64,000 bases of DNA. Origin: Bdellovibrionales bacterium. GTDB taxonomy: Bacteria > Bdellovibrionota > Bdellovibrionia > Bdellovibrionales > JAUICD01. Positions 880-61,811 of this stretch are shown piece by piece. Position 1 is the stretch's first letter, and every line of letters begins with the position of its first letter. Location of the stretch: positions 1,280,001-1,344,000 of the forward strand of contig OZ241865.1 of assembly GCA_965203275.1 (NCBI GenBank). The letters run 5' to 3'. Below the pieces are notes generated by a model. That model made no database searches. It saw nothing but the letters and a program-made list of their open reading frames with translations, and was not told the DNA's origin. The translations under genes and the position numbers were made by a program.

Positions 880-3729
880 TTATCTTCGACGACCACCTTG
901 CCCTTGTCGGACACGACCTCTGGAAGAACCTCTCCTTTGATAAGAACCACCTTGTCTACCTCTTTGGTAACTTCCACCTCTTTGATTATAACCACCTCGT
1001 TGACGGTTATAACCACCTCCTCGATTATAACCACCTCTCTGGCCACCTCTTCCTCTACGATTATAACCACCACTACCTCTAGGTCCTCGCCCTACAGCCC
1101 CAGGAGAGTACAAGCTTCCACCGCCATATTGGACCTGATAGAGCTTACGTGTTAGCTCTTGAATTTCCATTTGTATTGAATAAGCTGTTTGTTGTCTGGC
1201 CATTTGATTGGCTTGCATTTCTCTTTGCATATCCATCAGGCGTTGATGGTATTCCATCTGCATTTGCATAGCACCATACCCTCCGCCTAGACCCCCGGGG
1301 TACATGCCTGGGGCACCGGCCATACCAAGCCCCCCGCCACCAAAGCCACCGAATGGACTTCCCATTCCATAAGGAAAGCCTCCTCCACCCATGCCAAAGC
1401 CTCCGTGTAATCCGCCACCAAATGGGTTACCAAAGGGACTTCCTATTCCGTAGGGGGAACCTCCACCCATGCTAAAGCCTCCGTGCAATCCGCCACCAAA
1501 TGGGTTGCCAAAGGGACTTCCTATTCCGTATGGGGAACCTCCGCCCATGCTAAAGCCTCCGTGTAATCCGCCACCAAATGGGTTACCAAAAGGACTTCCT
1601 ATTCCGTATGGAGAACCTCCGCCCATACCAAAGCCTCCGTGCAGTCCGCCATAGAGAGGGCTAAAGCCAGGGTTGCCAAAGGGCATGCCAAAGCCAGGCA
1701 TACCAAAGGCTCCATGTAGACCACCCCTCATACCTAGACCGGGGTAGCCATACGGCATAGCTGGCATGCCGTAGGGGTTGATCATGCCGTGTGGTCCCAT
1801 GCGGTACATACCACCAAAGCCGGGGTAGCCAGCAGCACAGCCAAATCCAGAGCCGGCGAACATAGAGCCGTAGAGGACACCTGCTGTCAGTCCAAAGCTA
1901 GGGACAGGGTAGGGTGGGGCGGGTTGATTGATTGTGCGGGCAAAAGCTGAGGCTCTTGAGTGTTGTTTGTGGCCAAAGTAAGCTAGCCCTCCATCAATGA
2001 GGCCTGCAGCGATGAGCTTAGCCCAAAAGCCTTTGCCATGACTAGATTGATGGCAATCTACACAGTGGTAATAGCCATCTCTGTTGGGGTTTTCTCTATA
2101 TGTTCTTTGTCCTCGCCCTCTTCTTCTAGTGGTTCTTTCTCTTGTTCTTTCTCTTCTTCTTAATTCACCTACTCTATTTTTGCATAGACGATCTTCCCTT
2201 TTAAGTCTTTCATATTCTCTTAAAGTATCTTCACAGTCTTCATAAAACTCACTATCTCTTTGAATCCAACCTTTGGCTTTGAGTCCTCTACATATTTCAC
2301 TGACAGTGAGGGTTTTGCAATTAGGTGGTTCAGGAGGGGGGACATTTCTCTCTGGACAAGTTCCTGGGGTTCTTGGAGGAGTTTCTGGTCTTTCAATAGG
2401 ACATACTGTTCCACTTGTTCCTCCTGTACATTCTCTTGTTTCTTCAGCACAAGGGCATTGATTGGTAGGGCAATTTGCTGTTTCTGTTGCTTCACATGGT
2501 GGACATGGCTTTTTACAATCAGGATTTCTGTCACAAAGTTGTCTACAAGCATCTGACATAGTTCCTTCAAAAGGAGTACCAATCAAACGACACCTACAAG
2601 ACATACAATTTGGTGGAGGAGGTGGACCGGCAGTACTACCACCAATTGGATTTTCTATAACACATAATTCTCTACAAGTACCAGTTTGACATTCCTGTTG
2701 GCTTTTTGATGAGTCTGTTTGACATTGACTTATACATTGCTGACAATTTGGTGGTAGAGTAAAAGACTTTTTTACTTCTTCTTCTGGTGCTGGCTCTGGC
2801 AGAGGTGGTGCTACTACTGGTGGAGGTGGTGCTGGCTCTGGCAGAGGTGGTGCTACTACTGGTGGAGGTGGTGCTGGCTCTGGCAGAGGTGGTGCTACTA
2901 CTGGTGGAGGTGGTGCTGGCTCTGGCAGAGGTGGTGCTACTACTGGTGGAGGTGGTGCTGGCTCTGGCAGAGGTGGTGCTACTACTGGTGGAGGTGGTGC
3001 TGGCTCTGGCAGAGGTGGTGCTACTACTGGTGGAGGTGGTGCTGGCTCTGGCAGAGGTGGTGCTACTACTGGTGGAGGTGGTGCTGGTGGTGTTGAGCAA
3101 TCAGAATTATTGTTCATACACCAATTTTGACAGTCAAAATGATCTTCTCGCTGTTGTGGACATGTAGTGTTAATACATGTCTGACATTTAGCAGAGTTTA
3201 CTCCTGCGAAGGGTGCATCTCCTGTTGGTGGTGTAACCTGTGTGTCTGCAAAGGTAGGGGGGATAAAAAGATCAGCTAGAGCAGGGAAGATTTCAGAAAT
3301 ACTCGGTACTTGTCCAAAGATACCATCTCCACTACTCCTTCCAGAAGGACCATCTGGTGGATTGCAACATATTCTATTTCTTTGCAAAATATCATCTAAA
3401 GTTTGTTCATACTCACATCCTTCTTTTGTAAATCCATGGTCAAAATCAATGCTTAACCCTTCTTCAATAATGTTTCTTTCTTCTGCAAGGTTGTCGTTTA
3501 TTTCATCACAATCATCTTGAACATCATCAGATGTTTCACGATCACGTCCAGGTCCCCGAGGATGGGAAGGACAAGCACCAGCCCCCATACTCACTCCTCC
3601 AGGATAATAAGGGTAATATCCCCACACATCTAGTGGTATCAATAAAATCAAAATAAAAACCCAATATCTCAAAAAAATACACTCCTTTTTATTGTTTTGT
3701 TTTTTTTGTTTTGCTTTGTTTTCGCTCAT
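880..3729 (-). CDS. Secreted Cys-rich / Pro-repeat / Gly-rich low-complexity protein
   Basis: 949-aa ORF with an N-terminal hydrophobic segment, CxxC clusters, a Pro repeat, a Gly-Phe-Met-rich region and an RGG-rich tail. Confidence 0.8.
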   Translation of the reverse strand: MSENKAKQKKQNNKKECIFLRYWVFILILLIPLDVWGYYPYYPGGVSMGAGACPSHPRGPGRDRETSDDVQDDCDEINDNLAEERNIIEEGLSIDFDHGFTKEGCEYEQTLDDILQRNRICCNPPDGPSGRSSGDGIFGQVPSISEIFPALADLFIPPTFADTQVTPPTGDAPFAGVNSAKCQTCINTTCPQQREDHFDCQNWCMNNNSDCSTPPAPPPPVVAPPLPEPAPPPPVVAPPLPEPAPPPPVVAPPLPEPAPPPPVVAPPLPEPAPPPPVVAPPLPEPAPPPPVVAPPLPEPAPPPPVVAPPLPEPAPEEEVKKSFTLPPNCQQCISQCQTDSSKSQQECQTGTCRELCVIENPIGGSTAGPPPPPNCMSCRCRLIGTPFEGTMSDACRQLCDRNPDCKKPCPPCEATETANCPTNQCPCAEETRECTGGTSGTVCPIERPETPPRTPGTCPERNVPPPEPPNCKTLTVSEICRGLKAKGWIQRDSEFYEDCEDTLREYERLKREDRLCKNRVGELRRRERTRERTTRRRGRGQRTYRENPNRDGYYHCVDCHQSSHGKGFWAKLIAAGLIDGGLAYFGHKQHSRASAFARTINQPAPPYPVPSFGLTAGVLYGSMFAGSGFGCAAGYPGFGGMYRMGPHGMINPYGMPAMPYGYPGLGMRGGLHGAFGMPGFGMPFGNPGFSPLYGGLHGGFGMGGGSPYGIGSPFGNPFGGGLHGGFSMGGGSPYGIGSPFGNPFGGGLHGGFSMGGGSPYGIGSPFGNPFGGGLHGGFGMGGGGFPYGMGSPFGGFGGGGLGMAGAPGMYPGGLGGGYGAMQMQMEYHQRLMDMQREMQANQMARQQTAYSIQMEIQELTRKLYQVQYGGGSLYSPGAVGRGPRGSGGYNRRGRGGQRGGYNRGGGYNRQRGGYNQRGGSYQRGRQGGSYQRRGSSRGRVRQGQGGRRR
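1390..1650. repeat. 78-bp coding tandem repeat (~3 copies, GGLHGGFxMGGGSPYGIGSPFGNPFG)
   Basis: Visible in both DNA and protein. Confidence 0.9.
2785..3087. repeat. 42-bp perfect coding tandem repeat (7 copies, APPPPVVAPPLPEP)
   Basis: Unit tggtgctggctctggcagaggtggtgctactactggtggagg repeated. Confidence 0.95.
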
Positions 3730-4039
3730 TTTGTTTCATTCTGCTTTATTTTGTTCTGTTTCATTTTGTCTCATTTTGCTTCTTTTCATTTTGTCTCATT
3801 TCACTATGTTGTTTTATAGCAGGTGCTAGCAGTATCAGTCGAAGATATATGTTCTTTTTATTGTGGAGTTCACTGCATCTTATGATGTAAAAACTGACAG
3901 CTTATTTCCGTTGATAACTTTTCTAGGAACAGATATCGAGGATTGCCAATTTCCAGATAAACCACACCTTAAATCTCTATCGTCATTTAGAAAAAATCTC
4001 TTAAATATTTCCAGCTATCTAAAAGACCAGAAGTTGGCT

Positions 4040-4328
4040 CACTAAAAGTAAACTGACCTCTGGTCACTTTTGGGTAGCCAGCCCGACGGCTACCGCCGTC
4101 GATCAAAGGCTGGCTACCTCAAAAGTCCGTTTACTTTTAGTAGGAAGGATCCCTTCGTCTCTTGACCACATGTTAAGGAAAAAGTCCTATTTTACGCCTT
4201 TTGGCTGTCGTCGTCGATCAAAGGCTGGATACCTCAAAAGTCCGTTTACTTTTAGTAGGGGAGGATCCTCTCGTCTCTTAACCACATGTTAAGGAAAAAT
4301 TTCCTTTATTGCATTGAGCTTGTTTCCC
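4040..4328. repeat. Repeat mosaic: module A (4040-4183), partial A, half B
   Basis: ACTAAAAGTAAAC/GTTTACTTTTAGT outer stem, TGACC-TCT-GGTCA hairpin, CGACGGC-TACC-GCCGTCG hairpin, TGTTAAGGAAA end. Confidence 0.9.
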
Positions 4329-4530
4329 AAAAACACAATCGGCGATATAGATAAGAAAAATTTAGTATTTACAGGTGTATGAATACTTGCATATTGAGCT
4401 TTTAGCTCTTTGTATCTTTCAATATAAGGTTCAAATTCAGGATTAGTTTGCATCTGTGCAATAGTTTTGAACAAAGCTGAATGTGATCGAAATGCATTTT
4501 GAATATCAGTTAATAAGACAGGATATTCTT

Positions 4531-4791
4531 CTATTTTTTCAATTTTTCAGTTTTCACACCTTTTACGGATTGTAATTCAAGAGTGACTTTTTCTTTTCTC
4601 TTCAGATTGTCTTGCTGCACTAAGTTCCTAGGAATTGTGATCTTTAAACCAGCTTCTTTTTGATATAATACGACACTTTTTTCATTGAAGCTGTGAACAA
4701 ATCCTTTAACCTGAAACCCTGAAATACCAGCCATAGCTACAGCAGAACCAAATGAACATACAAATATGATCAATATTACTAATTTGTTCAT
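4531..4791 (-). CDS. Small basic secreted protein
   Basis: 86 aa, signal peptide, SD GGAGG upstream. Confidence 0.75.
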   Translation of the reverse strand: MNKLVILIIFVCSFGSAVAMAGISGFQVKGFVHSFNEKSVVLYQKEAGLKITIPRNLVQQDNLKRKEKVTLELQSVKGVKTEKLKK

Positions 4792-4853
4792 AACTCTTCC
4801 TCCCTTTGATATGTTTAGCTACTTTTTTAATTAAATTATTTTTAAAAATATTT

Positions 4854-5888
4854 TTAATGTGTCCCTCCTCCTGGTGCGAATCTTCTTTCATATCGATGAC
4901 TGTCGTCTATCTCTCTTCGTTGGATAAATTCTTGTACCTCAGTATAATTTCCAACATCATCTGCTTCATCATTAGCACATTCGTTAGGATCTGTAGGGCA
5001 AGTACATCGTACGGGACCAGCACCACGAATACATTCTTTCCTATCACAAATTGCACCTCCAATGACACCATCGGCCCAATCTCCATCTGCATTTTTACAT
5101 CTTATTAATGTCATACGACATTGAGTCCCTACAAGTTCTGTAGCACCTATTTGTTCACAGCTATGATAAGTTCCACCTATTTCTTCTTCAGCTCTTTCTT
5201 CAGCTTCATCTTCTCCTATTTTTTCTGTCTCAGTATAATTTCCAACATCATCTGCATCATTATCATTAGCACATTCGTTAGGATCTGTAGGGCATGAATT
5301 ACGTGGAAAACTACCACAGTCTATACTAGGACAAGATCTGCCTTGAGATGGTACACAGTTACAGGCAGGGTTTTCATAAGCAACATTACAATTCGCTGTA
5401 GCTCTAGCATTCTCTGGGATGAGAGGTTCTCCATCTTGTATACAACCAGTAACAACGATATGACATAGATTATCTTCAATATAAGTCTCTCCCGCTCTTT
5501 CACAATTACTTATACCTCCTTGGTAAACTGCACTAGATGCAACTGCTGTAGCAGTATATCTTACAAGACCATCCGAATCATAATCATTAGCACACTCGTT
5601 AGGATTCGTAGGGCATGAATTACGTTGTGCATCACCACAATGTACAGGACAAGAGTCTGAACAATTATTACATGCAGGGTCTGCATAAGCAGCATCACAA
5701 CTTGCTGTAGCGGAGGGAATAGTTCGCTCTCCATCGCTACATCCCCTGACTTCTACAATACATAAACCCTCTGTATTAACTGAGTAGGAGCCAACAACTT
5801 GACAGTCCGTGTAAGTGTCACTTTGAGCATAAACAAATATGCTACCATAAATAATACCTAAGAGTGAAAAATAAAAAAAATATTTCAT
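4854..5888 (-). CDS. Secreted Cys-rich repeat protein (3 domains ending CPT[DN]PNECAND)
   Basis: 344 aa, signal peptide, internal repeats. Confidence 0.85.
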   Translation of the reverse strand: MKYFFYFSLLGIIYGSIFVYAQSDTYTDCQVVGSYSVNTEGLCIVEVRGCSDGERTIPSATASCDAAYADPACNNCSDSCPVHCGDAQRNSCPTNPNECANDYDSDGLVRYTATAVASSAVYQGGISNCERAGETYIEDNLCHIVVTGCIQDGEPLIPENARATANCNVAYENPACNCVPSQGRSCPSIDCGSFPRNSCPTDPNECANDNDADDVGNYTETEKIGEDEAEERAEEEIGGTYHSCEQIGATELVGTQCRMTLIRCKNADGDWADGVIGGAICDRKECIRGAGPVRCTCPTDPNECANDEADDVGNYTEVQEFIQRREIDDSHRYERRFAPGGGTH

Positions 5889-5972
5889 AAGAAATCTCCA
5901 TAAAATTTTATAAAGTTTTTACTTAAATTTTAATCCATCAAATAAAAATATTATTACCATTCAATAATGATC

Positions 5973-6299
5973 TCATCTTCGAGATCTTTTTTGTTTCTTG
6001 TTTATTCTTTGAGATTTATGATTAGAAGCCGTCTTTCTTTTGGGGAAAACAACAGCAGAAACAGGAATATTTAATTTAATAGACTGACCAATTTTTTTAA
6101 ATTGACTTCTTAAAGGTCTTGAAATCTTTGATTTTTGAATTTTTAATACTGACTTGTCGTCTGTTTGAACATAATAAAAACCATTACGATAAGTTTTAAG
6201 TCGGCCCTCAACAGAGATGCTAATGTTAGCAAAAGCTGATGTTGCTAGAAAAAGAAAAACTACTCCAAAACCCAAAAAATTAAGTTTTTTATAATACAT
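5973..6299 (-). CDS. Small basic secreted protein
   Basis: 108 aa with an AFA signal-peptide cleavage motif. Confidence 0.75.
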   Translation of the reverse strand: MYYKKLNFLGFGVVFLFLATSAFANISISVEGRLKTYRNGFYYVQTDDKSVLKIQKSKISRPLRSQFKKIGQSIKLNIPVSAVVFPKRKTASNHKSQRINKKQKRSRR

Positions 6300-6454
6300 A
6301 TTAAACCCCTTATTTAATATTTAAAATAAATAGACCTACAAAAGTTTTTATATCTACTTATATTATCGATTATAAATAGAAAAAACTTTAAAGATTCTGT
6401 AAGATTTTGATTTTTTCAGATTAAAGTACCCATTTCTCCACTTTAGTCGTGGTC

Positions 6455-7256
6455 TGTTTCACTCAAAATGAGCCACACTTCTGGTGTGTTTTTGGGCATT
6501 GCTCTGACAGCTATCGCTGTCTAAAAAGAGCAATGTCTCAAAAGTCCGTTTACTTTTAGTAGGAAGGATCCCTCTTGCTTTTTAACACAATGTTAAGGAA
6601 AAAGAGTTTCATTTGTAAACCCGGTTGCTCTTGAGACAATAAAAGGACTTTTTCCTTAACATGATGTAAAGGAATAAAAGGATCCTCCTCTACTCAAAAT
6701 AAATGAATTTTCTAGGCAGTTAGCCTTTGATGACGGCGTGAGCCGTCGGGCTAAACAGCTTATTTCCTTACCATGATGTTAGGAGACGAAGATATCCTCT
6801 TTACTCAAAGTGAACAGGCTTTTGAGACAATGACCATTTTGTCAAAGGCGAAAGCCTTTGCGGTCATTGTCCAAAAGTGGCCAGAGGCCAGTTCACTTTG
6901 AGTGAAACAGAGGTGTGGTTCATTTCAAGTGCAAAAGACGGCATGATTTATTTTGAGTGAAATGTTAAGGAAAAAGTTCCTTTCTTTTTGTTTTTTTATT
7001 CTCTTTTAGATTTTGCGTAAACTCAAACAAGAAGTAATTAAAATGAGAATGGGGCAGTGGGAGACTGAAGATCTTCCGCAAATTGAGCTTGCTCCTTGAA
7101 GGCAAGCTCAATTGAGGACTTCGGAAGGCTCCCACTGCCCTATTCTCAATTAAAAACAAGATGGAAAAGCAGAATCGAAGGGCGGTGGGTGGGGTTAGGG
7201 ATCATCCTTCTGATGCCTGACTGCCGGATCCCAGATAAATTACATGTTAAGAAAAC
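6455..7256. repeat. Repeat mosaic: A(+)-B-A(-,partial), A(-), stacked ends, C (6963-7201), D
   Basis: Direct reading of the module sequences. Confidence 0.9.
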
Positions 7257-7289
7257 AGGTTTGGTGGATTGTTCAACAAACGATAATGT

Positions 7290-7553
7290 TTAGCTTAGAT
7301 TATTTAGTTTTTTCTGTATTTCTCGTATTTTGTTCTCTGTAGACTCTGTGATTTTTGCAATGGTCGAAATATCCATGTTATTTTTAAGCATTTTTAAGAT
7401 GACACTTTGTTCTCCTTCCTGTCGCCCTTCTTGTCGCCCTTCCTGTCGCCCTTTTTGTTCTCCTTCTTGCAGGCCTTCCTGTCGCCCTTTTTGTAACCCT
7501 TTTTGCAATCCTTCTTGTAATAATCTTTCTCTTGTGATCTGTAGTGGTGGCAT
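7290..7553 (-). CDS. RpnS-like C-terminal small protein from an internal start
   Basis: SD AAAGGAGG followed by ATG (MPPLQITRE..EGRQEGRQ..), 87 aa, intact. Confidence 0.6.
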   Translation of the reverse strand: MPPLQITRERLLQEGLQKGLQKGRQEGLQEGEQKGRQEGRQEGRQEGEQSVILKMLKNNMDISTIAKITESTENKIREIQKKLNNLS

Positions 7554-7634
7554 GGTTCTTTCCTCCTTTGATATATGTTTTTCTTCTATTTTTCGCAATA
7601 CTTTCCATGTAAAACTAGGATCATAAATCCTGTC

Positions 7635-8009
7635 TGTTTCACTCAAAGTGAACTGGCCTCTGGCCACTTTTGGACAATGACCGCAAAGGCTTTCGCCTTT
7701 GACAAAATGGTCATTGTCTCAAAAGCCTGTTCACTTTGAGTAGGAAGGATCCCTTCCTCTTTTGACACGATGTTAAGGAAACAAGCTGTCTCTTAACATA
7801 ATGTTAAGGGAAAAAGTTTTATTTGTAAACTCGCTTGCCCTTAAGGCAATAAAAAACTTTTTCCTTAACATGGTGTAAAGGAATAAAAAGATCCTCCTCT
7901 ACTTAAAATAAATGGATTTTCTAGGTAGTTAGCCTTTGATCGACGGCGGTAGCCGTCGGGCTAACTGCCAGAAAACATGCCAGAGGCATGATTTATTTTG
8001 AGTGAAACA
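7635..8009. mobile_element. A-B-A composite element with TGTTTCACTCAAA at both termini, inside the rpn gene
   Basis: Inverted termini; interrupts a coding sequence. Confidence 0.7.
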
Positions 8010-8539
8010 ATACTTGCACCTTTGATGATGGAAAATTCAAATATCCATGGAAACTCAATGGCATCTTCCAAGGCTCCTTACCTGAATAAACCAATACAGG
8101 AATTACCAAAGAAGGCACTTTATTTTTACCCTGTTTACTATCTTTTTCATAAATATTAGCTTGGTAATTGAGCATCTGGATAAAAACACTAGGGTCGTTA
8201 TAAGACTTATGCTCAAAAAGAAAAATAATCTCAACCATCTGCCCTGTTTTCAGTTTAACAGAAAAAATCACATCAGCCCGACGCTCTCTAAAAGCCTTAT
8301 CTATAAAAACAGTCACTCTAGATTGCAAAGTACTCCAATCAAAAAGTTCAAATTCCTCTGAAGTTAAAACCAAACGGAATAAATCTAAAATATATTGTTC
8401 CTTGCTGTAAACTTCATAAAATAAATGGTCAAATAAATGTAAGACATCACGCTTAAAACCTTTTTTGTTCTTTTTAAGATGTTTGAATTTTTTAGACATA
8501 ATCACTCCTTATGTGTTTTTGTTTCAGTAAAAATAGTCT

Positions 8540-8670
8540 TGTTTATTTTTAGTATAGAGGATCCCTCCATTTCTTGACACAATGTTAGGGAAAAAGTTCT
8601 TTCTCATGCCAGATTGCCAGATCCCGGATGCCGGATGCCAGATCCCAGATCCCAGATGCCAGGATCCCGG
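8540..8670. repeat. Right half of module A plus D heptamer tract
   Basis: ..TTTTAGT..GGATCC..TGTTAGGGAAA followed by a GATCCCG/GATGCCG/GATGCCA/GATCCCA run. Confidence 0.85.
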
Positions 8671-8713
8671 AAGAAGGGGGCTTAAGTCACGCCTGTCACA
8701 AAGTTAATGGGAA

Positions 8714-9121
8714 TTAATCAGCCTTAGGAAGTGTGATCAGTCCTATATCAGAAATACCAGCAGCATTCACTTCCCCCATAACTTCAGCAACCACCCCATA
8801 ATATGCCATTTTATCCGCTTGAATATAAATTTGTTTGTTTTGCCTGACCTCAAAAATAGCTGTAAGCTTTTGTCGCAATGATTCTATAGGTATGTGAACA
8901 GAGTCAACTTTAATTTGACCGTCTCTTTGAATGATCAATACAAAGGGATCTTCACGAGTAGCTACTCCAGAACTTGCTGTCTCTGGTAGTTGCACATCAA
9001 TACCTTGTTGCATCATAGGCGTTGTCACCATAAAGATCACTAACAGAACCAACATCACATCTACAAAGGGAGTGATATTGATTTCACTAAGCATGCTTTT
9101 TTGATGAACTGTCATGCTCAT
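8714..9121 (-). CDS. tolR: TolR/ExbD family protein
   Basis: EINITPFVDVMLVLLVIFMVTTPM motif. Confidence 0.9.
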   Translation of the reverse strand: MSMTVHQKSMLSEINITPFVDVMLVLLVIFMVTTPMMQQGIDVQLPETASSGVATREDPFVLIIQRDGQIKVDSVHIPIESLRQKLTAIFEVRQNKQIYIQADKMAYYGVVAEVMGEVNAAGISDIGLITLPKAD

Positions 9122-9864
9122 TCGTTTTCTTTTCCTTTTCTAAAGAAGTTTTTTTTAGCTATGTTTAAAAAATCAGAAACAAAATGACTCAACCCCACCT
9201 CTATTTGTTTGCACTGTGCTAAGTATTGATTATAAGCTACTACAGCAGGGATAGCAACTAACAAGCCAAAAGCGGTTGCAATCAAAGCTTCTGAAATGCC
9301 AGGGGCAACAACAGCAAGGTGAGCAGCTCCTGTTGTACCAATCTTTTGAAAGGCATTCATAATACCCCAAACAGTACCAAAAAGTCCAATAAAAGGGGAT
9401 GTGCTACCTATTGTAGCCAATAAGCTAAGACTTGATTCTAGCTTACCTGTTTCCAGTTCAGAGGCTTTTCTTAAAGCCCTTTGGACATTATCAATATCTA
9501 CTATATCAAAGGCTTGTTTTTCTTTAAATGCTTTTAAGCCTGATAGTTTAGCAAGGTGTTTAAGCTCTTCAAATCCTGCATGGAAAATAGCTTCTGATGG
9601 ACTTTCTCTTTTTTGGTTGTAATGGGTGGAGCGAGGGATATCATTCCAAGAAGAAATACTCCAAAAACGTTTTAAGAAAATATCATCTGCTTGTTTGACT
9701 TGAGAAAAATGCTTAAACTTCATAAAAATAATAGACCAAGATAAAACAGAAAAGACAATTAACACTAATAAAGTGATCTGTACAACAATGCTAGCAGATA
9801 GCACAGCATCTATGGCGTCAAATTCTATAACAGGGGTTGTGGTTTGTGCGTATAGTTTTGTCAT
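9118..9864 (-). CDS. tolQ: TolQ/ExbB/MotA proton channel
   Basis: PFIGLFGTVWGIM and APGISEALIATAFGL motifs. Confidence 0.9.
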   Translation of the reverse strand: MTKLYAQTTTPVIEFDAIDAVLSASIVVQITLLVLIVFSVLSWSIIFMKFKHFSQVKQADDIFLKRFWSISSWNDIPRSTHYNQKRESPSEAIFHAGFEELKHLAKLSGLKAFKEKQAFDIVDIDNVQRALRKASELETGKLESSLSLLATIGSTSPFIGLFGTVWGIMNAFQKIGTTGAAHLAVVAPGISEALIATAFGLLVAIPAVVAYNQYLAQCKQIEVGLSHFVSDFLNIAKKNFFRKGKENE

Positions 9865-9956
9865 ATTATTTTTTACTATAACTAATTTGTTCTTAAAAAG
9901 ATAACAAAAAAATTAAGTAAAAAAACAGCTTATTTATTTTTTTATACTCTTGTTTT

Positions 9957-10080
9957 TCCGGGATCCGGGATCCCGGGAATCGGGCAACCCGGCAACAGGC
10001 AGGAGTGAAGTGAACATCTTGTTTCCTTAACATTTCACTCAAAATGCATCATGCCGTCTTTTGCACTTGAAATGAACCAA
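9957..10080. repeat. D heptamers plus stacked module ends
   Basis: 10021-10079 is nearly the reverse complement of 6918-6973. Confidence 0.85.
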
Positions 10081-10081
10081 C

Positions 10082-10546
10082 CTACTGGCTTTTTCTGTTT
10101 TCATTGAGTCTTCTGACAGTTAATCGCAGATCAAATAAACTAATATTTCTGATTTTGCATTCGGCAGTAGGATGTTCTCTATGCCATTTAATCCTTGCTG
10201 TAGGTGGCCTATAACGTACATTAATGTAAACCTTGGGGTTAAGCACTTTAGAATTAGTTGGTAGACGAGGAGTACATTGATGTTTAAAAAAATCAATTTT
10301 AATTGTAGGTACAAGGGCCCTACTTTGATCAGATATATGCTCTATTAACATAGGACAAGATGTGATTGCTAATCGTGACTTTGTGTTTTCTTTAGGCTGA
10401 AATATTAAATATGCTTGCCCAACACTATCTAAAGTCAGCTTTCCTGTATACTTTGAATGAGAAAAACGACAATCTAAAATATTAGTATTAGCAAAAGCTA
10501 AAGGACACCATAAACATAATAAAATAAAAATCAATACATATTTCAT
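10082..10546 (-). CDS. Secreted hypothetical protein
   Basis: 154 aa, AFA signal peptide, coupled to the upstream gene. Confidence 0.75.
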   Translation of the reverse strand: MKYVLIFILLCLWCPLAFANTNILDCRFSHSKYTGKLTLDSVGQAYLIFQPKENTKSRLAITSCPMLIEHISDQSRALVPTIKIDFFKHQCTPRLPTNSKVLNPKVYINVRYRPPTARIKWHREHPTAECKIRNISLFDLRLTVRRLNENRKSQ

Positions 10547-10552
10547 TTATTT

Positions 10553-12271
10553 TTACCTCCTAGTACCTCTGTTTTGGTTTGTTAAATTATGCCTTATTTG
10601 AGAAGTAGTCACAGGTCTACAAGTATGAATAGTATGGGAAACACAATGTAAGTTACCCATAAGAGAGTGAGAATATTCAGTAGTATCTACAAAACGAGCT
10701 GTGATTTTCCTTTTGTTGTATTCATTTTTCATATATTCTTGAAAAGCTGTGTTGCCTCCGGGTGTAGGGATTATTAAGTGATCGTTTATGGAAACAGCAT
10801 TATTTGAGTTGGGTAAAATAGATAATCCTGTCTTTCTATCTAAAGTGATCTCTCCATCAGGACTTTCTGTTATTTCTCCAGAGAAAAGATCTGGAGTTTG
10901 AATAAAATCAGGAGTGCAACCAAGCCTATTTTTTATATTATTTCTTAATGTTATTCTAAGAGTGTCCATTTCTTTTTGAACTACATCATTGTATTTTTTA
11001 TAATCTGTATCATTTTGAAGAAGCATCAATACATCACTATTTTTAAGTATTGTATTTTGACATGCTTCTCTTCTTGCTTTTTCTCTTTCTTCTCTACGCT
11101 CTCTTCGCTCTCTTTCAAGAACCACAAAATGCTCCCATAAAGGATCAACAGGAGCATAAGCATAAGGAATCATCCAACGATAAAGTTTATAGAATAATTG
11201 AGAGATGCCTTCACCTCTCTGAGGAGATCTTCTTCTTCTTTCTCTAGATTTGTTTAATTTTAACTCGTTTGCTTTGATACACATATTCATTACAGTACCT
11301 TCCATAGGCATAGATGTAAAGGGTTCATCAGGATTGCTTCTTAAAAGCTCTGTGGCCTTTCTGGGACTAGATAAGGCTATAGAAAAGTTACATTGTCCTG
11401 GTTTGGGATTGAGATTTCTAATTGGTTTCATAATCTCATCAGTATGTCCTACTTCAAGCCAATAGGTAGGAACTTTGATCTTATTGTCTGGGTTTGTACC
11501 ACAGAATTGATTGGCGTATGCTTCCCATTGGTTTCCTTGAAAATCATCATCTCCTAAAAGACAAAAGCCTCCAGGGAGTCCTTCAATATTACCTCCACCA
11601 TGTCCATTACGCATTCTAGGGGCTGTTTTCAGTGGAGAAGCACTTTGCACTCCGCAATTTTTAAGTGTATTGACAATACTTGAGGTACTCTCCTGAAATG
11701 ATTCAATGGACATGTTATTGTCATAACCTTCAACATTTCTTATAACTGCTTGTCCAGTATTTGGATCAACAAAAGATTCAAAATAATCTTGTTGCCATGT
11801 AAACTGTGGTACATGAGGTATCGGTCTTAAAGCTGCAACAGCTTTATCTTTGAGTGCCTGAGATATATTTAATTTATTAATATGCATTTTAATTTCTTCT
11901 GTTTGAGTTTCAGGTACACCCATAAGCAAGATCAACGGCATAGAGTCTGCTTTTGAAGATCGTATCACTTGTTCTACAAAAGATTGTGTGAATTCCTTAC
12001 CAACTGTTCCTCCTCTAGTAGAAACCACAACAGCAGAGACAGGATAAGTTTCTGGTATGATAGAAGGCATTCCAGGCCTTGGGCAGGCAGGCATATTCTC
12101 ACGTTCTTTAATCCACTGAGGACAATGATCATTGAGGACAGGTGGAGCTGATGGATCAGCTTGAATGATTGTACCAGGTTCAACAGTGTCAAGTATGACA
12201 TCAGCTTGAACAAAATCTGTCAACAGCAATAATAGCAAAACAATGTTTATCAACATCACAGTATTTTTCAT
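10553..12271 (-). CDS. Secreted protein-arginine deiminase (PAD)-like enzyme
   Basis: Signal peptide; WQQD, GGNIEGLP, WLEVGHTDE and GNLHC match the PAD catalytic Asp/His/Asp/Cys motifs. Confidence 0.8.
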   Translation of the reverse strand: MKNTVMLINIVLLLLLLTDFVQADVILDTVEPGTIIQADPSAPPVLNDHCPQWIKERENMPACPRPGMPSIIPETYPVSAVVVSTRGGTVGKEFTQSFVEQVIRSSKADSMPLILLMGVPETQTEEIKMHINKLNISQALKDKAVAALRPIPHVPQFTWQQDYFESFVDPNTGQAVIRNVEGYDNNMSIESFQESTSSIVNTLKNCGVQSASPLKTAPRMRNGHGGGNIEGLPGGFCLLGDDDFQGNQWEAYANQFCGTNPDNKIKVPTYWLEVGHTDEIMKPIRNLNPKPGQCNFSIALSSPRKATELLRSNPDEPFTSMPMEGTVMNMCIKANELKLNKSRERRRRSPQRGEGISQLFYKLYRWMIPYAYAPVDPLWEHFVVLERERRERREEREKARREACQNTILKNSDVLMLLQNDTDYKKYNDVVQKEMDTLRITLRNNIKNRLGCTPDFIQTPDLFSGEITESPDGEITLDRKTGLSILPNSNNAVSINDHLIIPTPGGNTAFQEYMKNEYNKRKITARFVDTTEYSHSLMGNLHCVSHTIHTCRPVTTSQIRHNLTNQNRGTRR

Positions 12272-12571
12272 AAAAACTCTTTATCTAAGATTAATTTTTC
12301 TTGCTAACTCTTAGCACCTTTTGCATTCTGCTGTTAGTTTTTACCAATATTGCTACAATTTTCCTCCAAAATTTCTTCTAAAAGGCTAAGGATAGCAAGG
12401 AACAATAAAACACCAAGAACTTTTAATGCACTGCGTGTTAGGGGAGGAGGACAAAGATATTCCTTTGGACCTAAATATTGGCATATTGACCTCATCTATA
12501 TTTGTATCGACATAATTTATAAAAAATTTAAGATTATTTATATAAACAGGACTTTTATCAGGCTCTTTAAT

Positions 12572-12890
12572 ATTTCACTCAAAATGCATCATGCATTTTG
12601 AGTGAAATTTTAAGGAAAAAGATTTCCTTTTTTTATTTTTTTATTCTTTTTAGATTCTGCGTAACTTTCAAAAAAAATATAAATGTTATGAGTGGGAGGC
12701 GGAGGCAGGCTGGAGATCTTCCGCAGACCCGCTTGCTCTTTAAAAGCAAGCGAAGGTTGAGGACTTCGGAAGCCTGCCTCCGCATTCCACTCATAAAAAA
12801 CATACAAATAGGAAAGCAGAATCAAAGGGCGGTGGGTGGGGTTAGGGAGTTTGGTTTACTTTTAGTGAAACTAGACCACTTTTAATGAAC
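12572..12890. repeat. Palindromic A-end dyad, module C (12609-12848), stacked ends overlapping the mnmG stop
   Basis: TTTCACTCAAAATGCAT-C-ATGCATTTTGAGTGAAA, then the C stems. Confidence 0.9.
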
Positions 12891-28029: not shown

Positions 28030-28491
28030 CAGGCTAACTGCCTCAAAAGCCTGTTCACTTTTAGGAAGGAGGATCTCCTCATTTCTTAACACGATGTTAA
28101 GGAAAAAGGAGTTTCTTTTTTTGTTTTTTTATTCTCTTTTAGATTCTGCGTAATTTTCAAAAAAGCATGAATATTATGAGTGGGAGGCGGGGGCAGGCTG
28201 GAGATCTTCCGCAGACCCGCTTGCTCCTTAAAAGCAAGCGAAGGTTGAGGACTTCGGAAGCCTGACTCCGCATTCCACTCATAAAAAATATACAAATGGA
28301 AAAGCAGAATCGAAGGGCGGTGGGTGGGGTTAGGGAGTTAGCTGTTTCACTCAAAGTGAACTGGCCTCTGGCCACTTTTGGGCAATGACTGCAATGGCTT
28401 TCGCCATTGGCAAAATGGTCATTGCCTCAAAAATCTATGCATTTTGAGTAGGGCGAATCTCCTTGCTTCTTGACACGATGTTAGGGAAACA
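28030..28491. repeat. Repeat mosaic: partial A, C (28095-28336), chimeric A (28343-28491)
   Basis: Direct reading; lies between convergent genes. Confidence 0.9.
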
Positions 28492-30439: not shown

Positions 30440-30592
30440 TTTTTTCTCCTTATTTTATATTTGTTGCTATTTCTTACTTTCTTATCGGCAGTTTGTCAGT
30501 TTAAATTCAAAAAAAATCACAATTTATCACAAAATAATCAAAAAAATTAAACAGTGTCTTTTTATTTTTCAGTTTGTATTGAATATTGTACA

Positions 30593-30954
30593 TTTCACTC
30601 AAAATGCATCATGCCTCTGGCATGTTTTTGGACAATGACCGCAATGGCTTTCGCCATTGGCAAAATGGTCATTGCCTCAAAAATCTATGCATTTTGAGTA
30701 GGGCGAATCTCCTTGCTTCTTACACCATGTTAGGGAAAATTTCTTTTATTGCCTCAAGAGCAAGCGGGCTACAATAAAGGAGTTTTTTCCTTAACATGTA
30801 GTAAAAAAACGAAGGTTTCCTCCTTACTAAAAGTGAACAGGCTTTCTAGGTTGCCAGCATTTGAGAAGGCGGTAGCCTTCGGCTGGCAACCAGAAAGTGA
30901 CCAGAGGTCAGTTCACTTTGAGTGAACCAGAGGCATGATTTATTTTGAGTGAAA
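30593..30954. mobile_element. A-B-A composite (30593-30927) plus a stacked end supplying the fumC stop
   Basis: Two different A arms in inverted orientation joined by B. Confidence 0.8.
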
Positions 30955-35246: not shown

Positions 35247-36419
35247 ATGAAACAAAATCAAGTAAAAAAATTAATAAAATTAAAATTAATTAATTTAGTG
35301 AGCTTTCTTTTAACTTTAATATTGAGTATGACACTCAATGCACAATATGCACAATCACAAGGCTTTTCTCATCTAGATCAAGCTATCGCTGAACAAGAAC
35401 TACTTGAACGTTTAATGAACATAGATCAAATGAGTTTAGAAAACTTAAGAGCTAAATTACTAGCAGCAGAAGAAGATAATGAAGGAGCTATGGCAGAAGA
35501 TGGAACTTACATCACAGAAAATGGAACATACTTCATAGAGCTATCAGAGGAAGAAGCCAATATAATAACTTTATTTCAAGATGTAGCTGATGTTTTTCAA
35601 TATGAAAATGCTGTTTCCACATTACCTTTATCCATTAGTCATTTAAGTAGTGTAAACGACCCTGATTCTACTACGAATGCTGATGTTGCAATATCACAAC
35701 AACCACAACAAGCTAACGTGCAACAAGCACCTCCACCTGTAGCCCCTCCCCCTGTAGCGGTCAAAAAAAATGGGGTGCTTAAACGTACTTTTAGTGGGCT
35801 TGGATATACATTTAAGATACTAACACCAAAACCAGTAAGAACAGCCTTTATGATAACGGCATCGGTTATTATGGGAGTATCTACCTATAAATACTTAGAA
35901 GAAAATCCTGATATAGATGGAGCTATACCTGCAAGAATTGCAATCAATGTTTCAAAAGAAGTTATAGTATTTGTATTGAAAATGACTAATGCTGCTATAG
36001 AGTTTCTTGCGAGCTTTGCCCCTGACCTCGGTGAAAATCAATCTTATCAAACCCCAACAGAGGTACCAGCACCAGCACCAGGAGGAGATACAACGCTTCA
36101 GCAAAGTCATGATGGGACTACTGCTGCCACTAGAAGCGAAATGATACTCACCGGCGGAGAAACAACACCTCCAGATCATGATGAAACTGTTGCTACTTTT
36201 GACCGCAACACACAACAAGGTGTAGAACATGTAGAACAACAACCTCCTCTGCCATCAGTTACTGAAACAGAAGTTCAAGTCCATGAACCGCATTGGATCT
36301 TGACAGTGCCGGGGCATTTGAAAGCTGTTAGAAAAGAAGTTGATGTTACTACCAATGACAGTGAACCTGCTGATTCTCTACTTACACGTATTCCTCCTAC
36401 ACGTCCTCCTTCTCAATAA
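35247..36419 (+). CDS. Exported hypothetical Pro/Thr/Gln-rich protein
   Basis: SD GAGGTG before ATG 35247; signal-like segment. Confidence 0.7.
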   Translation: MKQNQVKKLIKLKLINLVSFLLTLILSMTLNAQYAQSQGFSHLDQAIAEQELLERLMNIDQMSLENLRAKLLAAEEDNEGAMAEDGTYITENGTYFIELSEEEANIITLFQDVADVFQYENAVSTLPLSISHLSSVNDPDSTTNADVAISQQPQQANVQQAPPPVAPPPVAVKKNGVLKRTFSGLGYTFKILTPKPVRTAFMITASVIMGVSTYKYLEENPDIDGAIPARIAINVSKEVIVFVLKMTNAAIEFLASFAPDLGENQSYQTPTEVPAPAPGGDTTLQQSHDGTTAATRSEMILTGGETTPPDHDETVATFDRNTQQGVEHVEQQPPLPSVTETEVQVHEPHWILTVPGHLKAVRKEVDVTTNDSEPADSLLTRIPPTRPPSQ

Positions 36420-36423
36420 AAAT

Positions 36424-36502
36424 GGTCAGGCTTTCTAGGCGATGACCATTTTATCGATGGCGAAAGCCCATCGTGGTCATCTAGACCACTTTTAGTGAGA
36501 CA
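36424..36502. repeat. Truncated module A (reverse)
   Basis: GATGACC..GATGGC-GAAA-GCCCATC..GGTCATC followed by GACCACTTTTAGTGA. Confidence 0.8.
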
Positions 36503-36572
36503 AAAGAAGTGAAACTTTATCTTTCCGCTCTTGTATATCTTTCTTATTCTGCTATTTTTTTTAAGCAAAAAA

Positions 36573-54343: not shown

Positions 54344-55230
54344 TTTCACTCAAAATGAGCCACATCTCTGTTTCACTAAAAGTGGTCTGACCTCTGGTCA
54401 CTTTCTGGTTGCCAGCCGAAGGCTATTCGCCTTCTTAAATGCTGGCAACCTAGAAAGCTTGACCACTTTTAGTAAGGAGGATCCATTTCTCATTTAACAC
54501 CATGTTAAGGAAAAAGTTCTTTCTTACACCTTTTGACCACGATGGCTTTCGCCATCGGTAAAATGGTCATCACCTAGAAAGCCTGACCACTTTTAGTAAG
54601 GAGGATCTCTTCGTTTCTTAACACCATGTTAAGGATTTGTTTCACTCAAAATGCATCATGCCTCTGGCATGTTTTCTGGCAGTTAGCCCAACGGCTTATC
54701 GCCGTTGATCAAAGGCTAACTGCCTAGAAAATCCATTTATTTTGAGTAGGGAAGGATCTTCTCGTCTCTTAACATGATGTTAAGGAAACAGTTCCTTCTT
54801 ACACCTGCTTGCCTGATGCCGGATCCCGGGATCCCGGATCCCGGAAAAAATCAATTTTAACTTTAAGTGTTTTTACACAACTTGTATAAATAAGCTCCTA
54901 ATTGATCAGCTTGTTTTGCTAATTCCATACAGCCACTAAATTCCAAGTCTAGTATTGCCTGAACTGTTTTTCACTAAAAGTAAACTAGCCGTCTTTTGCA
55001 CTAAAAGTAAACTGACCTCTGGTCACTTTTGGGTTGCCAGCCGAAGGCTATTCGCCTTCTTAAATGCTGGCAACCTCAAAAGTCCGTTTACTTTTAGTAG
55101 AGGAGGATCTCTTCGTTTTTTGACTACATGTTAAGGAAAATGTCCTTCTAATGGCAGTTAGTCCGACGGCTTATCGCCGCCGATCAAAGGCTAAGCTGTT
55201 TCACAGTGGTCTAGCCTCTGGCTACTTTTT
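54344..55230. repeat. Large repeat mosaic: three full A copies (54369-54514, 54638-54790, 54999-55140), partial copies, D tract, stacked ends
   Basis: Direct reading of the module sequences. Confidence 0.9.
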
Positions 55231-56421: not shown

Positions 56422-56838
56422 TCAAAAGTAGCCAGAGGATTATCCCTAACCCCACCCCCCACCCTTTGATTGCTTTTTTCACTCAAAATGAACTGGCCTC
56501 TGGCCACTTTTGGGTAGCCAGCCCGACTGCTCACGCCGTCGTAAAAAGCTGGCTACCTCAAAAGCTTGTTCATTTTGAGTAGAGAAGGATCTCCTCATTC
56601 CTCTACACCATGTTAGGGAAAAAGTGCTTTTATTACCTTAAGAGCAAGCGGTTTACAAATGAGGGACTTTTTCCTTAACATGTAGTTAAAAAACGAGGAG
56701 ATCCTCCTTACTAAAAGTAAACGGATTTTTGAGGCATTGCTCTTTTTGGACAGCGATAGCTGTCAGAGCAATGCCCAAAAACAGCCAGAGGCTGGTTTAC
56801 TTTTAGTGAAACAGAGGCTGGTTTATTTTTAGTGAGAA
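56422..56838. mobile_element. A-B-A composite (56477-56813) with flanking fragments
   Basis: Two different A arms joined by B. Confidence 0.8.
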
Positions 56839-57171: not shown

Positions 57172-57940
57172 CTCAAAAGTGACCAGAGGTCAGTTTACTT
57201 TTAGTGAAACAACTATCCCTAACCCCACCCGCCACCCTTCGATTCTGCTTTCTCATTTTGTTTTTACTTGAGGATGAGGGCAGAGGGAGCCTTCCGAAGT
57301 CCTCAATTGAGCTTGCTTTTAAGGAGCAAGCTCAATTTGCGGAAGATCTCCAGTCTCCCTCTGCCCCCATCCTCCCCTAAATGATTTTTTATTTGAGAGT
57401 TACGCAGAATCTAAAAAAAATAAAAAAACAAAAAATACTTCCTCCGGGATACGGAATCCCGGGATCCGGGATCTGGGATCCGGGATCTGGCAAGCCGGCA
57501 TCAGATCCCGGGATGCCAGATTGCTTGATCCCGGATCCCGGGAGTAAATGTTTTGTTTCCTTAACATGGTGTTAAGAGAAAAAAGGATCCTCCTCTACTC
57601 AAAATAAATGAATTTTCTAGGCAGTTAGCTTTTGATCGACGGCGGTAGCCGTCGGGCTAACTATTAGAAGAATGTTTTCCTTAACATGGTGTTAAGAAAC
57701 GAAGAGATCCTCCCTACTCAAAGTGAACAGGCTTTTGAGACAATGACCATTTTGTCAAAGGCGAAAGCCTTTGCGGTCATTGTCCAAAAGTGGCCAGAGG
57801 CCAGTTCACTTTGAGTGAAACAGAGGTCAGTTCATTTTGAGTGAAAAAAATTGAGGACTTCGGAAGGCTCACACTGCCCTATCCTCAAATAAAAATAAAA
57901 TGGAAAAGCAGAATTGAAGGGCGATGGGTGAGGTTAGGGA
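57172..57940. repeat. Repeat mosaic: A end, C(-) 57216-57435, D tract 57444-57543, two A(-), partial C
   Basis: Direct reading of the module sequences. Confidence 0.9.
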
Positions 57941-60843: not shown

Positions 60844-61811
60844 AAGTAAACTGACCTCTGGTCACTTTTGGACATTGCTCTGACAGCTATCGCTGTCCAA
60901 AAAGAGCAATGTCGTTGGTTCACTAAAAGTGGTCTGACCTCTGGTCACTTTCTGATTGCCAGCCGAAGGCTATTCGCCTTCTTAAATGCTGGCAACCTAG
61001 AAAGCATAACCACTTTTAGTAGGAGGATCCTTTCCTCTTTTAACATCATGTTAAGGAAACAGAACTTTATTCGCAAACCGCTTGCTTCTGAGGTAATAAA
61101 AGAAATTTTCCTTAACATGGTGTAAAAGAATAAAAGGGTCCTCCTCTACTCAAAATGCATAGATTTTTGAGGCAATGACCATTTTGCCAACGGCGTAAGC
61201 CGTTGCGGTCATTGCCCAAAAACATGCCAGAGGCATGATGCATTTTGAGTGAAATGTTAAGGAAAAAGTCCTTTCTGATGCCGGGTTGCCAGATCCCGGA
61301 TCCCGGGTGAACACAATGTTAAGGGTTTGTTTCACTCAAAATGCATCATGCCTCTGGTTCACTAAAAGTAAACTAGCCTCTGGCTACTTTTGGGTAGCCA
61401 GCCCGACGGCTCTCGCCGTCGATCAAAGGCTGACTACCTCAAAAGCTTGTTCAATTTTAGGAAGAAGGATCACCTTGCTTTTTAACATGATGTTAAGGAA
61501 AAAAGATTTCCTTTTTTTTGTTTTTTTTATTCTTTTTTAGATTCTGCGTAATTTTCAAAAAAACATAAAATTTATGAGTGGGAGGCGGGGGCAGGCTGAA
61601 GATCTTCCGCAAATTGAGCTTGCTTTTAAGGAGCAAGCTCAATTGAGGACTTCGGAAGCCTGACCCCGCATTCCACTCATAAAAAACATACAAATGGAAA
61701 GGCAGAATCAAAAGGGTGGCGGGTGGGGTTAGGGAGTTTGTTTCACTAAAAATAAACCAGCCGTCATTTTCACTCAAAATGAATTGACCTCTGGACGCTT
61801 TTAGTGAAACA
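60838..61811. repeat. Repeat mosaic: partial A, A-B-A (60918-61254), D, A (61358-61503), C (61491-61735), stacked ends
   Basis: Direct reading; lies between convergent genes. Confidence 0.9.

Follow-up and report, generated by a model that had tools for sequence, protein, structure and literature searches.

DNA mini-hairpins of the type d(GCGNNAGC) or d(GCGNAGC), characterized by Hirao and colleagues, combine two G-C pairs with a C-G closing pair and a loop that starts with G and ends with A, and in those parts of Kimoto and Hirao's 2026 review that we draw on (PMC13037366), d(GCGAAAGC) melts at 76.5 °C, compared with 39 °C for r(GCGAAAGC). The same parts of the review give melting temperatures (Tm) of 69.5-72 °C for the d(GCGNNAGC) variants GACA, GCAA, GAGA, GTAA, GATA, GGAA and GTTA and of 67-70.5 °C for d(GCGAABGC) variants, describe both terminal G-C pairs as essential (no melting is seen for GCAAAAGC, and 33 °C is given for GCTTTTGC), and place the motif at sites acted on as single-stranded DNA (ssDNA), namely the complementary-strand origins of G4, St-1 and alpha3, RSF1010 ssiA and the N4 early promoters. 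The mini-hairpins covered there are single functional sites of phages and plasmids, whereas here we describe the identical motif capping one arm of a chromosomal repeat with ~750 copies that follow the loop rule. The repeat was analysed in a 64,000-nt window of a Bdellovibrionales bacterium (GenBank assembly GCA_965203275.1, contig OZ241865.1, positions 1,280,001 to 1,344,000; coordinates below count from the first letter of the window), in which the reference copy lies at 6802-6911(+), and in the genome that carries it (G000; one contig, 2.57 Mb, 35% G+C, 90% marker completeness). We tentatively propose, as a reading somewhat short of probable, that the repeat is a self-propagating non-coding DNA element, one strand of which must fold for the element to multiply, with the GNNA tip as its cap and an enzyme other than a Y1/HUH transposase acting on it.

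Folded single strands are also thought to underlie the biology of several repeats and mobile elements. Repetitive extragenic palindromes (REPs), bacterial interspersed mosaic elements (BIMEs) and REP doublets forming hairpins (REPINs) form hyper-abundant intergenic palindromic arrays thought to act in this way, and the sections of the four sources used here describe REPs as simple hairpins of 20-40 bp that carry a 5' GTAG or CGTC tag and have a cognate Y1 gene encoding the REP-associated tyrosine transposase (RAYT, or TnpA-REP) (PMC3333891, PMC3479197, PMC8266576, PMC3733652). For the insertion sequences (IS) IS200/IS605, the consulted portion of the source describes replication-coupled ssDNA transposition by the Y1 enzyme TnpA, with strand-specific imperfect hairpins recognized as ssDNA (PMC6006769). 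[quoted passage not shown] Integron attC sites, too, fold as ssDNA in a strand-specific manner and show asymmetric bulges and variation in the terminal structure. High-copy intergenic units of 100-160 nt with strong folding potential, some of them modular, include the Correia or Neisseria miniature insertion sequences (NEMIS), enterobacterial repetitive intergenic consensus (ERIC) sequences, BOX elements, repeat units of pneumococcus (RUP) and Rickettsia palindromic elements (RPE); these are known for terminal inverted repeats, for a parent IS or for both, or for acting at the RNA level. To our knowledge, none of them has a conserved GC-GNNA-GC tip or combinatorial compensatory variation across five helices.

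The element described here shares features with each of the ssDNA systems and departs from all of them. Unlike REPs, it is a 110-155-nt, four-helix branched fold with a YTACT 5' foot, in a genome with no Y1 gene; unlike IS200/IS605, it occurs with neither TnpA nor a convincing TnpB and with no lagging-strand orientation bias; and unlike attC, its units stand head to tail without cassette open reading frames (ORFs), in a genome with no integron integrase. Set beside the DGR hairpin, its terminal stems measure 7-8 bp, its loops carry A or G at position 2 in 591 of 709 tetraloops (T in 116), and nine Avd-like PF05635 genes each have a copy within ~100-200 nt downstream; the genome has no reverse transcriptase, and the hairpin is one arm of a larger repeat in about a thousand copies. 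Apart from the phage and plasmid origins, the DGR target hairpin is the nearest precedent at the DNA level.

Architecture and copy number

Both RNA and DNA folding predict a branched hairpin for the reference copy, with a minimum free energy of -65.1 kcal/mol (z -9.1 versus shuffled sequence) under RNA parameters and a computed -40.3 kcal/mol (z -9.9) under DNA parameters. In both folds, an outer helix, P1 (6803..6903(+); arms 6803-6815 and 6891-6903; several 5'-arm haplotypes among copies), encloses P2, P3 and P4. P2 (6819..6877(+)) is divided into P2a (6819-6824 / 6872-6877) and P2b (6826-6835 / 6862-6871), with compensatory variants at most pairs, and an ATTTTG bulge (6836-6841(+)), itself variable among copies, lies on the 5' side next to P2b and P3; an asymmetric bulge of 5-6 nt sits 5' of P3 across the copies. 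The P3 hairpin (6843..6860(+)) reads CAAAGGC-GAAA-GCCTTTG, its loop (6850-6853) forming the GC-GNNA-GC tip, and the P4 side hairpin (6878..6890(+)) reads TGGCC-AGA-GGCCA, with six covarying outer-pair variants around a near-invariant CCAGAGG core. A 3' tail, GAAACAGAG (6904..6912(+)), itself variable among copies, ends the unit, with the downstream consensus vanishing directly after the end of the model.

Genome-wide copies were collected by iterated nhmmer searches, in which the strand of each copy was decided by 65 bits on average; 1,830 matches in the window genome resolved into 1,258 loci, which together occupy 4.39% of the genome and of which 787 are near full length. When 160 nt upstream of the 787 copies were profiled, conservation was confined to the last ~45 nt, and the 3' end was abrupt; the unit is therefore ~155 nt long, consisting of the 110-nt branched hairpin and a 45-nt 5' module (6758..6801(+) at the reference copy) with a small CCTTAACAT..ATGTTAAGG-type hairpin and a GGATCC-like stretch. 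The copies are mosaics: 37 P1, 35 P2b, 24 P3 and 9 P4 haplotypes occur in many combinations with pairing preserved throughout, compensatory change is near-perfect in five helices, and in P1 Watson-Crick pairing is retained in 7,880 of 8,346 cells despite the 37 5'-arm haplotypes. Breakpoints of the 471 partial copies were scattered over many model positions in broad clusters only, with no sharp cleavage or insertion site. Contigs from four sequencing runs over window positions 3800-13000 break at each repeat, and none spans an element, so that they yielded no pairs of filled and empty sites.

Neighbouring units stand mainly head to tail (350 '++' and 324 '--' pairs). Pairs of opposite orientation are lopsided, with 122 '-+' pairs, mostly with a gap of ~126-130 nt, versus 27 '+-' pairs, and therefore point to a larger inverted composite around the 5' modules; the window holds two '-+' examples, 6452..6562(-) with 6802-6911(+) and 30588..30701(-) with 30824..30932(+). 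Short GGATCCCGG/GATGCCGGA-type repeat tracts (window 7212-7242, 8605-8671, 9954-9992, 54800-54845, 57448-57542 and 61277-61315) often lie 5' of the unit's 5' module and are apparently another module of the composite repeat.

The loop rule

Among the 18 full-length copies that the profile search placed in the window, the P3 loop, read on the strand ending ..AGTGAAA, was GAAA in six (the reference copy, 7632..7743(-), 57714..57825(+), 28340..28451(-), which has the stem CAATGGC, 30588..30701(-), and 36413..36505(+), whose 3' arm is decayed), GGTA in three (4032..4143(-), 7899..8012(+), which overlaps the end of an Rpn-like ORF, and 30824..30932(+)), the pentaloop GAATA in three (54366..54475(-), 54991..55100(-) and 60913..61022(-)), GATA in two (6452..6562(-) and 56708..56816(+)), and GTGA (56472..56582(-)), GAGA (61352..61463(-)), GTAA (61146..61259(+)) and the pentaloop GATAA (54635..54749(-)) in one each. 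These are exactly the eight loop types, all on one strand, that the initial annotation of this DNA had listed. It had also stated that the first G, the last A and the closing C-G pair never change, which is true of 18 out of 18 copies in the window and, across the genome, of 97-99% of copies rather than of all.

Tabulation of all copies, which that annotation had suggested, recovered a P3 hairpin in 784 of the 787 near-full-length copies (709 tetraloops and 68 pentaloops), and 749 of the 787 had a G..A or G...A loop (G...A in 66 of the 68 pentaloops). Tetraloops had G at position 1 in 686 cases and A at position 4 in 703, leaving 23 without the former and 6 without the latter, and the two middle positions varied (A471/G120/T116/C2 at position 2; A328/T207/G113/C61 at position 3, which thus tolerates T, as had been claimed, and also C). 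The closing pair was C-G in 761 of the 784 hairpins (23 exceptions), and the exact GC-GNNA-GC tip was present in 619 of the 787 copies. Since base composition predicts G..A in only ~6% of loops, and since the elements, with their 4.39% of the genome, hold 846 of its 984 GCGNNAGC sites, chance is excluded as the source of the rule. Only three loops were inverted (TGTC twice and TTATC once), and the P3 tip therefore does not flip.

The copies are related, and copy counts reflect amplification bursts, such that raw percentages overstate the number of independent events. On a single stem haplotype, GACGGC/GCCGTC (236 copies), six widespread loops vary at positions 2 and 3 (GGTA 87, GAGA 58, GTGA 36, GAAA 19, GACA 12 and GATA 9). 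Distinct single-site loop events numbered four at position 1 and one at position 4, versus four and five at positions 2 and 3, and each of the position 1 or 4 variants remained at seven copies or fewer. Each major loop was found on 8-18 P2b and 8-23 P1 haplotypes, and the many backgrounds make a founder effect unlikely. We conclude that the loop rule is under selection, at the level of which copies spread.

The rule also extends beyond this genome. BLAST searches of a congeneric genome (G001), a genome of a second genus (G004) and 38 further relatives found the family in the first two and in none of the 38. In G001 (a 400-kb sample and three loci), the loops were GTGA, GTAA, GTTA, GCGA, GCAA and GAAA, on other stems, some of them T-A closed, and 31 of 41 tetraloops were G..A; at one 3.4-kb locus of G004 (L032), both copies had a GATA or GTGA loop. 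The loop rule thus holds up in a second species and a second genus, where identity is 72-79% and the stems differ. A degenerate pattern scan of contig collections returned at least 40 loci; among the matches listed, six were real by hidden Markov model, all of them from G001. Downstream of tolQ-tolR, where the window genome has an array, G001 is free of elements at the orthologous site, to a distance of about 4 kb, and on the strength of this one comparison we favour the view that the elements are probably mobile rather than conserved in place.

The folding strand

Two asymmetries between the strands bear on how the element folds. Over 41 consensus pairs in 642 distinct rows, stem mismatches read on the GNNA strand were G·T or T·G in 865 cases versus A·C or C·A in 286 (G·T prevailed at 24 pair positions, A·C at 11, and one was tied, with three positions giving most of the excess), and under DNA parameters the GNNA strand folded more stably than the complementary one in 564 of the 665 distinct copies (mean difference 1.3 kcal/mol); because copies are related, neither the pair counts nor the folding counts are independent trials, and their direction is consistent. 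The G·T excess and the better folding of the GNNA strand support a fold that is single-stranded and strand-specific. Of the earlier claim that the element folds as strand-specific ssDNA, the strand-specific and single-stranded part is thus supported, and the choice of DNA over RNA is favoured.

Several observations lead us to favour DNA as the folding molecule. The RNA GNRA tetraloop has a purine at loop position 3, and the family does not keep to it: true GNRA loops accounted for 429 of the 683 G..A tetraloops, and a pyrimidine stood at position 3 in the remaining 254, so that the strong genome-wide dominance of GNRA that would have spoken for RNA is not seen, and the composition of position 3 (A46/T29/G16/C9%) is near that of the genome. 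The rule of the loops is instead that of the published DNA mini-hairpins, as had been proposed: in the portion of the review drawn on here, the DNA forms melt at 69.5-76.5 °C, versus 39 °C for the RNA (PMC13037366), and GAAA, GACA, GAGA, GTAA, GATA and GGAA of the element (and, in G001, GTTA and GCAA) are among the variants in that range, a comparison that leaves aside the element's GGTA, GTGA and GCGA loops and its pentaloops (GAATA, GATAA and GTATA; 66 copies). Orientation relative to neighbouring genes is near random, which suggests that the element is not tied to transcription and favours DNA: where flanking genes run in tandem, 348 of 629 elements have the GNNA strand as sense ('--' contexts, 165 versus 162), and by intergenic region there are 103 with a sense majority, 78 with an antisense majority and 15 ties. 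Promoter-like sites were not enriched near elements, and P1 is followed by no T-run terminator. Rfam gave no match at gathering thresholds over the whole window, and a search of 6400-8100 at E-value thresholds turned up nothing but miRNA-like hairpin noise far under the cut-offs.

The main alternative, which we consider possible yet unlikely, is that the arrays are transcribed and the hairpin with its C(GNNA)G tip acts in RNA, for example by resisting nucleases as a cap, by marking an RNase III-type processing site or by binding a protein; the loop rule would then describe a GNRA-like fold with room for U or C at position 3. Here lie several observations that tell against a DNA fold. The G·T excess and the folding asymmetry suit RNA equally, in which the former would be an enrichment of G·U-type pairs, and the asymmetry is larger with RNA parameters (599 of 665 distinct copies), partly because of tetraloop bonuses in those parameters; the RNA fold of the reference copy is very stable; and most G..A loops are true GNRA. 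A4 is the most conserved loop base, beyond what the DNA melting data demand, and because d(GCGAABGC) variants keep their high Tm in the data consulted (PMC13037366), stability alone does not explain its conservation. The bias in tandem contexts is slightly towards sense, and the gene map on which orientation was judged is a crude call of ORFs of at least 100 aa. In addition, the nearest element downstream of the nine PF05635 genes shares the orientation of the gene in eight of nine cases, and would hence be co-transcribed with it. Set against an action in RNA are the wide spread of loops with a pyrimidine at position 3 (GGTA, GATA and GACA, with GTTA in G001), the near-random orientation, the missing promoter enrichment, T-run terminator and Rfam match, the empty tolQ-tolR site of G001 and the low Tm that the consulted part of the review reports for r(GCGAAAGC) (PMC13037366).

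Proposed propagation and candidate partner enzymes

A self-propagating DNA element of this kind would depend on a specific strand having to fold for a copy to multiply. We propose that the P3 tip would be a canonical d(GC-GNNA-GC) mini-hairpin, with a sheared G·A pair stacked on the C-G and G-C pairs, and might serve as a very stable nucleation cap from which the unpaired strand would snap into the branched hairpin, either as ssDNA or as an extruded cruciform. A structure-specific enzyme other than a Y1/HUH transposase could then recognize, cut or copy the folded strand. The cap would, on this proposal, serve propagation rather than the host, and overall we read the element as a REP/MITE-like selfish repeat (MITE, miniature inverted-repeat transposable element) with an unusual strand-specific mini-hairpin DNA cap.

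The initial annotation had likened the element to substrates of HUH transposases, RAYTs or integron integrases, and the genome offers this likeness no support. Against a DNA-level propagation by the best-known routes, the window genome gave no match to Y1_Tnp (PF01797; IS200/RAYT), a profile whose control was positive in 6 of 14 genomes, none to the IS110 DEDD transposase and none to the reverse transcriptase profile RVT_1 (a template repeat/variable repeat pair was not searched for); Y2_Tnp was likewise without a match, although its control was also silent and the result is uninformative. Nor was the GNNA strand biased towards the lagging-strand template, which carries it at 638 of the 1,258 loci (P = 0.63) when dnaA (1.58 Mb), close to a weak skew minimum, is taken as the origin; GC skew is nearly flat and unable alone to place the origin, so that the origin inference is weak, and two other choices of origin and terminus gave the same result. 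The only tyrosine recombinases in the genome, two Phage_integrase matches, are Xer-like, reaching 55.4 and 54.0 bits with the integron integrase model TIGR02249, for which the cut-off is 265, and the sole TnpB match is an unconvincing weak zinc-ribbon inside a 1,365-aa ORF. The single Y1 gene of G001 is an IS200 equivalog, an ordinary IS200-type transposase, with the nearest element ~3.5 kb away and none flanking it. Since RAYT, IS200, integron and retroelement enzymes are absent from so repeat-rich a genome, another route of propagation must exist.

Two further candidates were considered and set aside. The 5' module slightly resembles a dif arm, and dif patterns matched only three sites, all inside IS4/5-like copies. 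The genome also carries IS256 (nine copies), IS4/5-like transposases (six) and 18 N6/N4 methylase paralogues, and the possibility of a MITE of a resident IS was examined by BLAST of a 161-nt unit against the nine IS256 and six IS4/5-like loci with 400-nt flanks; no consistent terminus matched, and matches arose only where an element copy happens to adjoin one IS copy. IS256 copies are not enriched beside elements (two of nine upstream and one of nine downstream).

By neighbourhood, the best candidate for the enzyme acting on the element is an expanded nuclease family of the PD-(D/E)XK type (PDDEXK_2 / Transposase_31, Rpn-like), with 48 ORFs inside the arrays. An element lies within 300 nt downstream of 35 of these 48 ORFs, compared with 17.7% of all 1,836 ORFs; 25 of the 48 are overlapped by an element, and 18 of the 19 intact genes have one within 700 nt, at variable distance. 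One of the intact paralogues, encoding 343 aa, lies at 1531336-1532367 of the genome contig. PDDEXK_2 is found in all three element-bearing genomes versus 4 of the 38 others, a comparison among kin that are not independent. Telling against the association, none of the 13 PDDEXK_2 loci examined in a genome of the same order (G022), nor any of three more in G010 and G011, has an element, and all of these contain almost no GCGNNAGC. The link between this family and the element is thus one of neighbourhood, suggestive only, and not obligatory. In G022 (1.9 Mb), the PDDEXK_2 genes occur in 14 copies of a ~1-kb repeated unit, of which loci L061-L073 were those examined, without the hairpin element. 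A bolder form of the proposal, which we regard as improbable, would see in the element a class of mobile repeat that lives as folded ssDNA or as a cruciform without HUH enzymes, in which the cap would be obligatory, would resist nucleases and single-stranded DNA-binding protein (SSB) and would mark the active strand, and in which a PD-(D/E)XK enzyme of the Rpn/PDDEXK_2 type would cut or copy it.

Quite improbable, in our estimate, is that the conserved letters are contacts through which a nucleoid protein, methylase, DDE transposase or similar protein would read GGC-GNNA-GCC and CCAGAGG in double-stranded DNA, with hairpin potential a by-product of inverted repeats as in MITEs. Such contacts would fit the invariant sequence islands, CCAGAGG of P4 and G..A of P3, that stand out from the covarying stems, and the IS256, IS4/5-like and methylase genes of the genome, but they predict neither the asymmetry of G·T over A·C and the better folding of one strand nor the near-perfect compensatory change in five helices, and unit ends bear no consistent IS256 or IS4/5-like termini, with IS256 not enriched nearby. 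Very improbable is a loop without function, inherited from one founder and not yet mutated, which would suit the relatedness of all copies and the inflation of percentages by amplification bursts but not the at least eight widespread variants into which positions 2 and 3 have diversified on identical stems, with positions 1 and 4 unchanged, the appearance of position 1 variants that then remain rare, or the survival of the rule on different stems in another species and genus.

Neighbouring genes and repeats

Within the repeat array of the window, a truncated ORF of the PD-(D/E)XK family just described (Rpn / Transposase_31-like, 170 aa, one of the 48 paralogues) lies at 7993..8505(-). A 12-nt tandem repeat (CCTGTCGCCCTT-like, at least seven registers) occupies window 7394-7513, inside a 125-aa ORF at 7290-7667(-) that BLAST places in the PD-(D/E)XK paralogue cluster.

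The PF05635 gene (101 aa; 23S rRNA-intervening-sequence / Avd-like four-helix bundle) is present in the window genome as nine ~95%-identical copies, at 472364-472669 of the genome contig (C1) and at 785660, 819120, 1094149, 1200332, 1838840, 1905607, 2080455 and 2111804. GGGATCYGG..CAACCCGGCA repeats stand on either side of each of the nine, and each has a hairpin element within ~100-200 nt downstream.

Elsewhere in the window, a 21-nt tandem repeat of at least 13 registers (2743-3129) lies in a 949-aa ORF (880-3729(-)) with no NCBIfam match. Other paralogue families of the genome comprise 158 ORFs without a Pfam match, 34 N-terminal-methylation (pilin-like) ORFs, two sets of nine N6/N4 DNA methylase ORFs, and 72 small ORFs; a scan of one of these 72 gave only a weak DUF4455 match below the cut-off.

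Implications

Chemical work and a small number of origins in phages and plasmids made the mini-hairpin motif known, and here ~750 natural copies follow its rule on one strand. The family thus amounts to a built-in mutational series at the two middle bases of the loop, and makes it testable whether hairpin repeats act as DNA or as RNA. It also presents a strand-specific, REP-like repeat that has reached ~4% of a genome in which RAYT, IS200, integron and retroelement enzymes are absent. Involvement of the adjacent PD-(D/E)XK genes, if real, would clarify a large and poorly understood 'transposase' family, and a repeat cut by such an enzyme, if that were true, would be the first defined DNA substrate for this widespread family.

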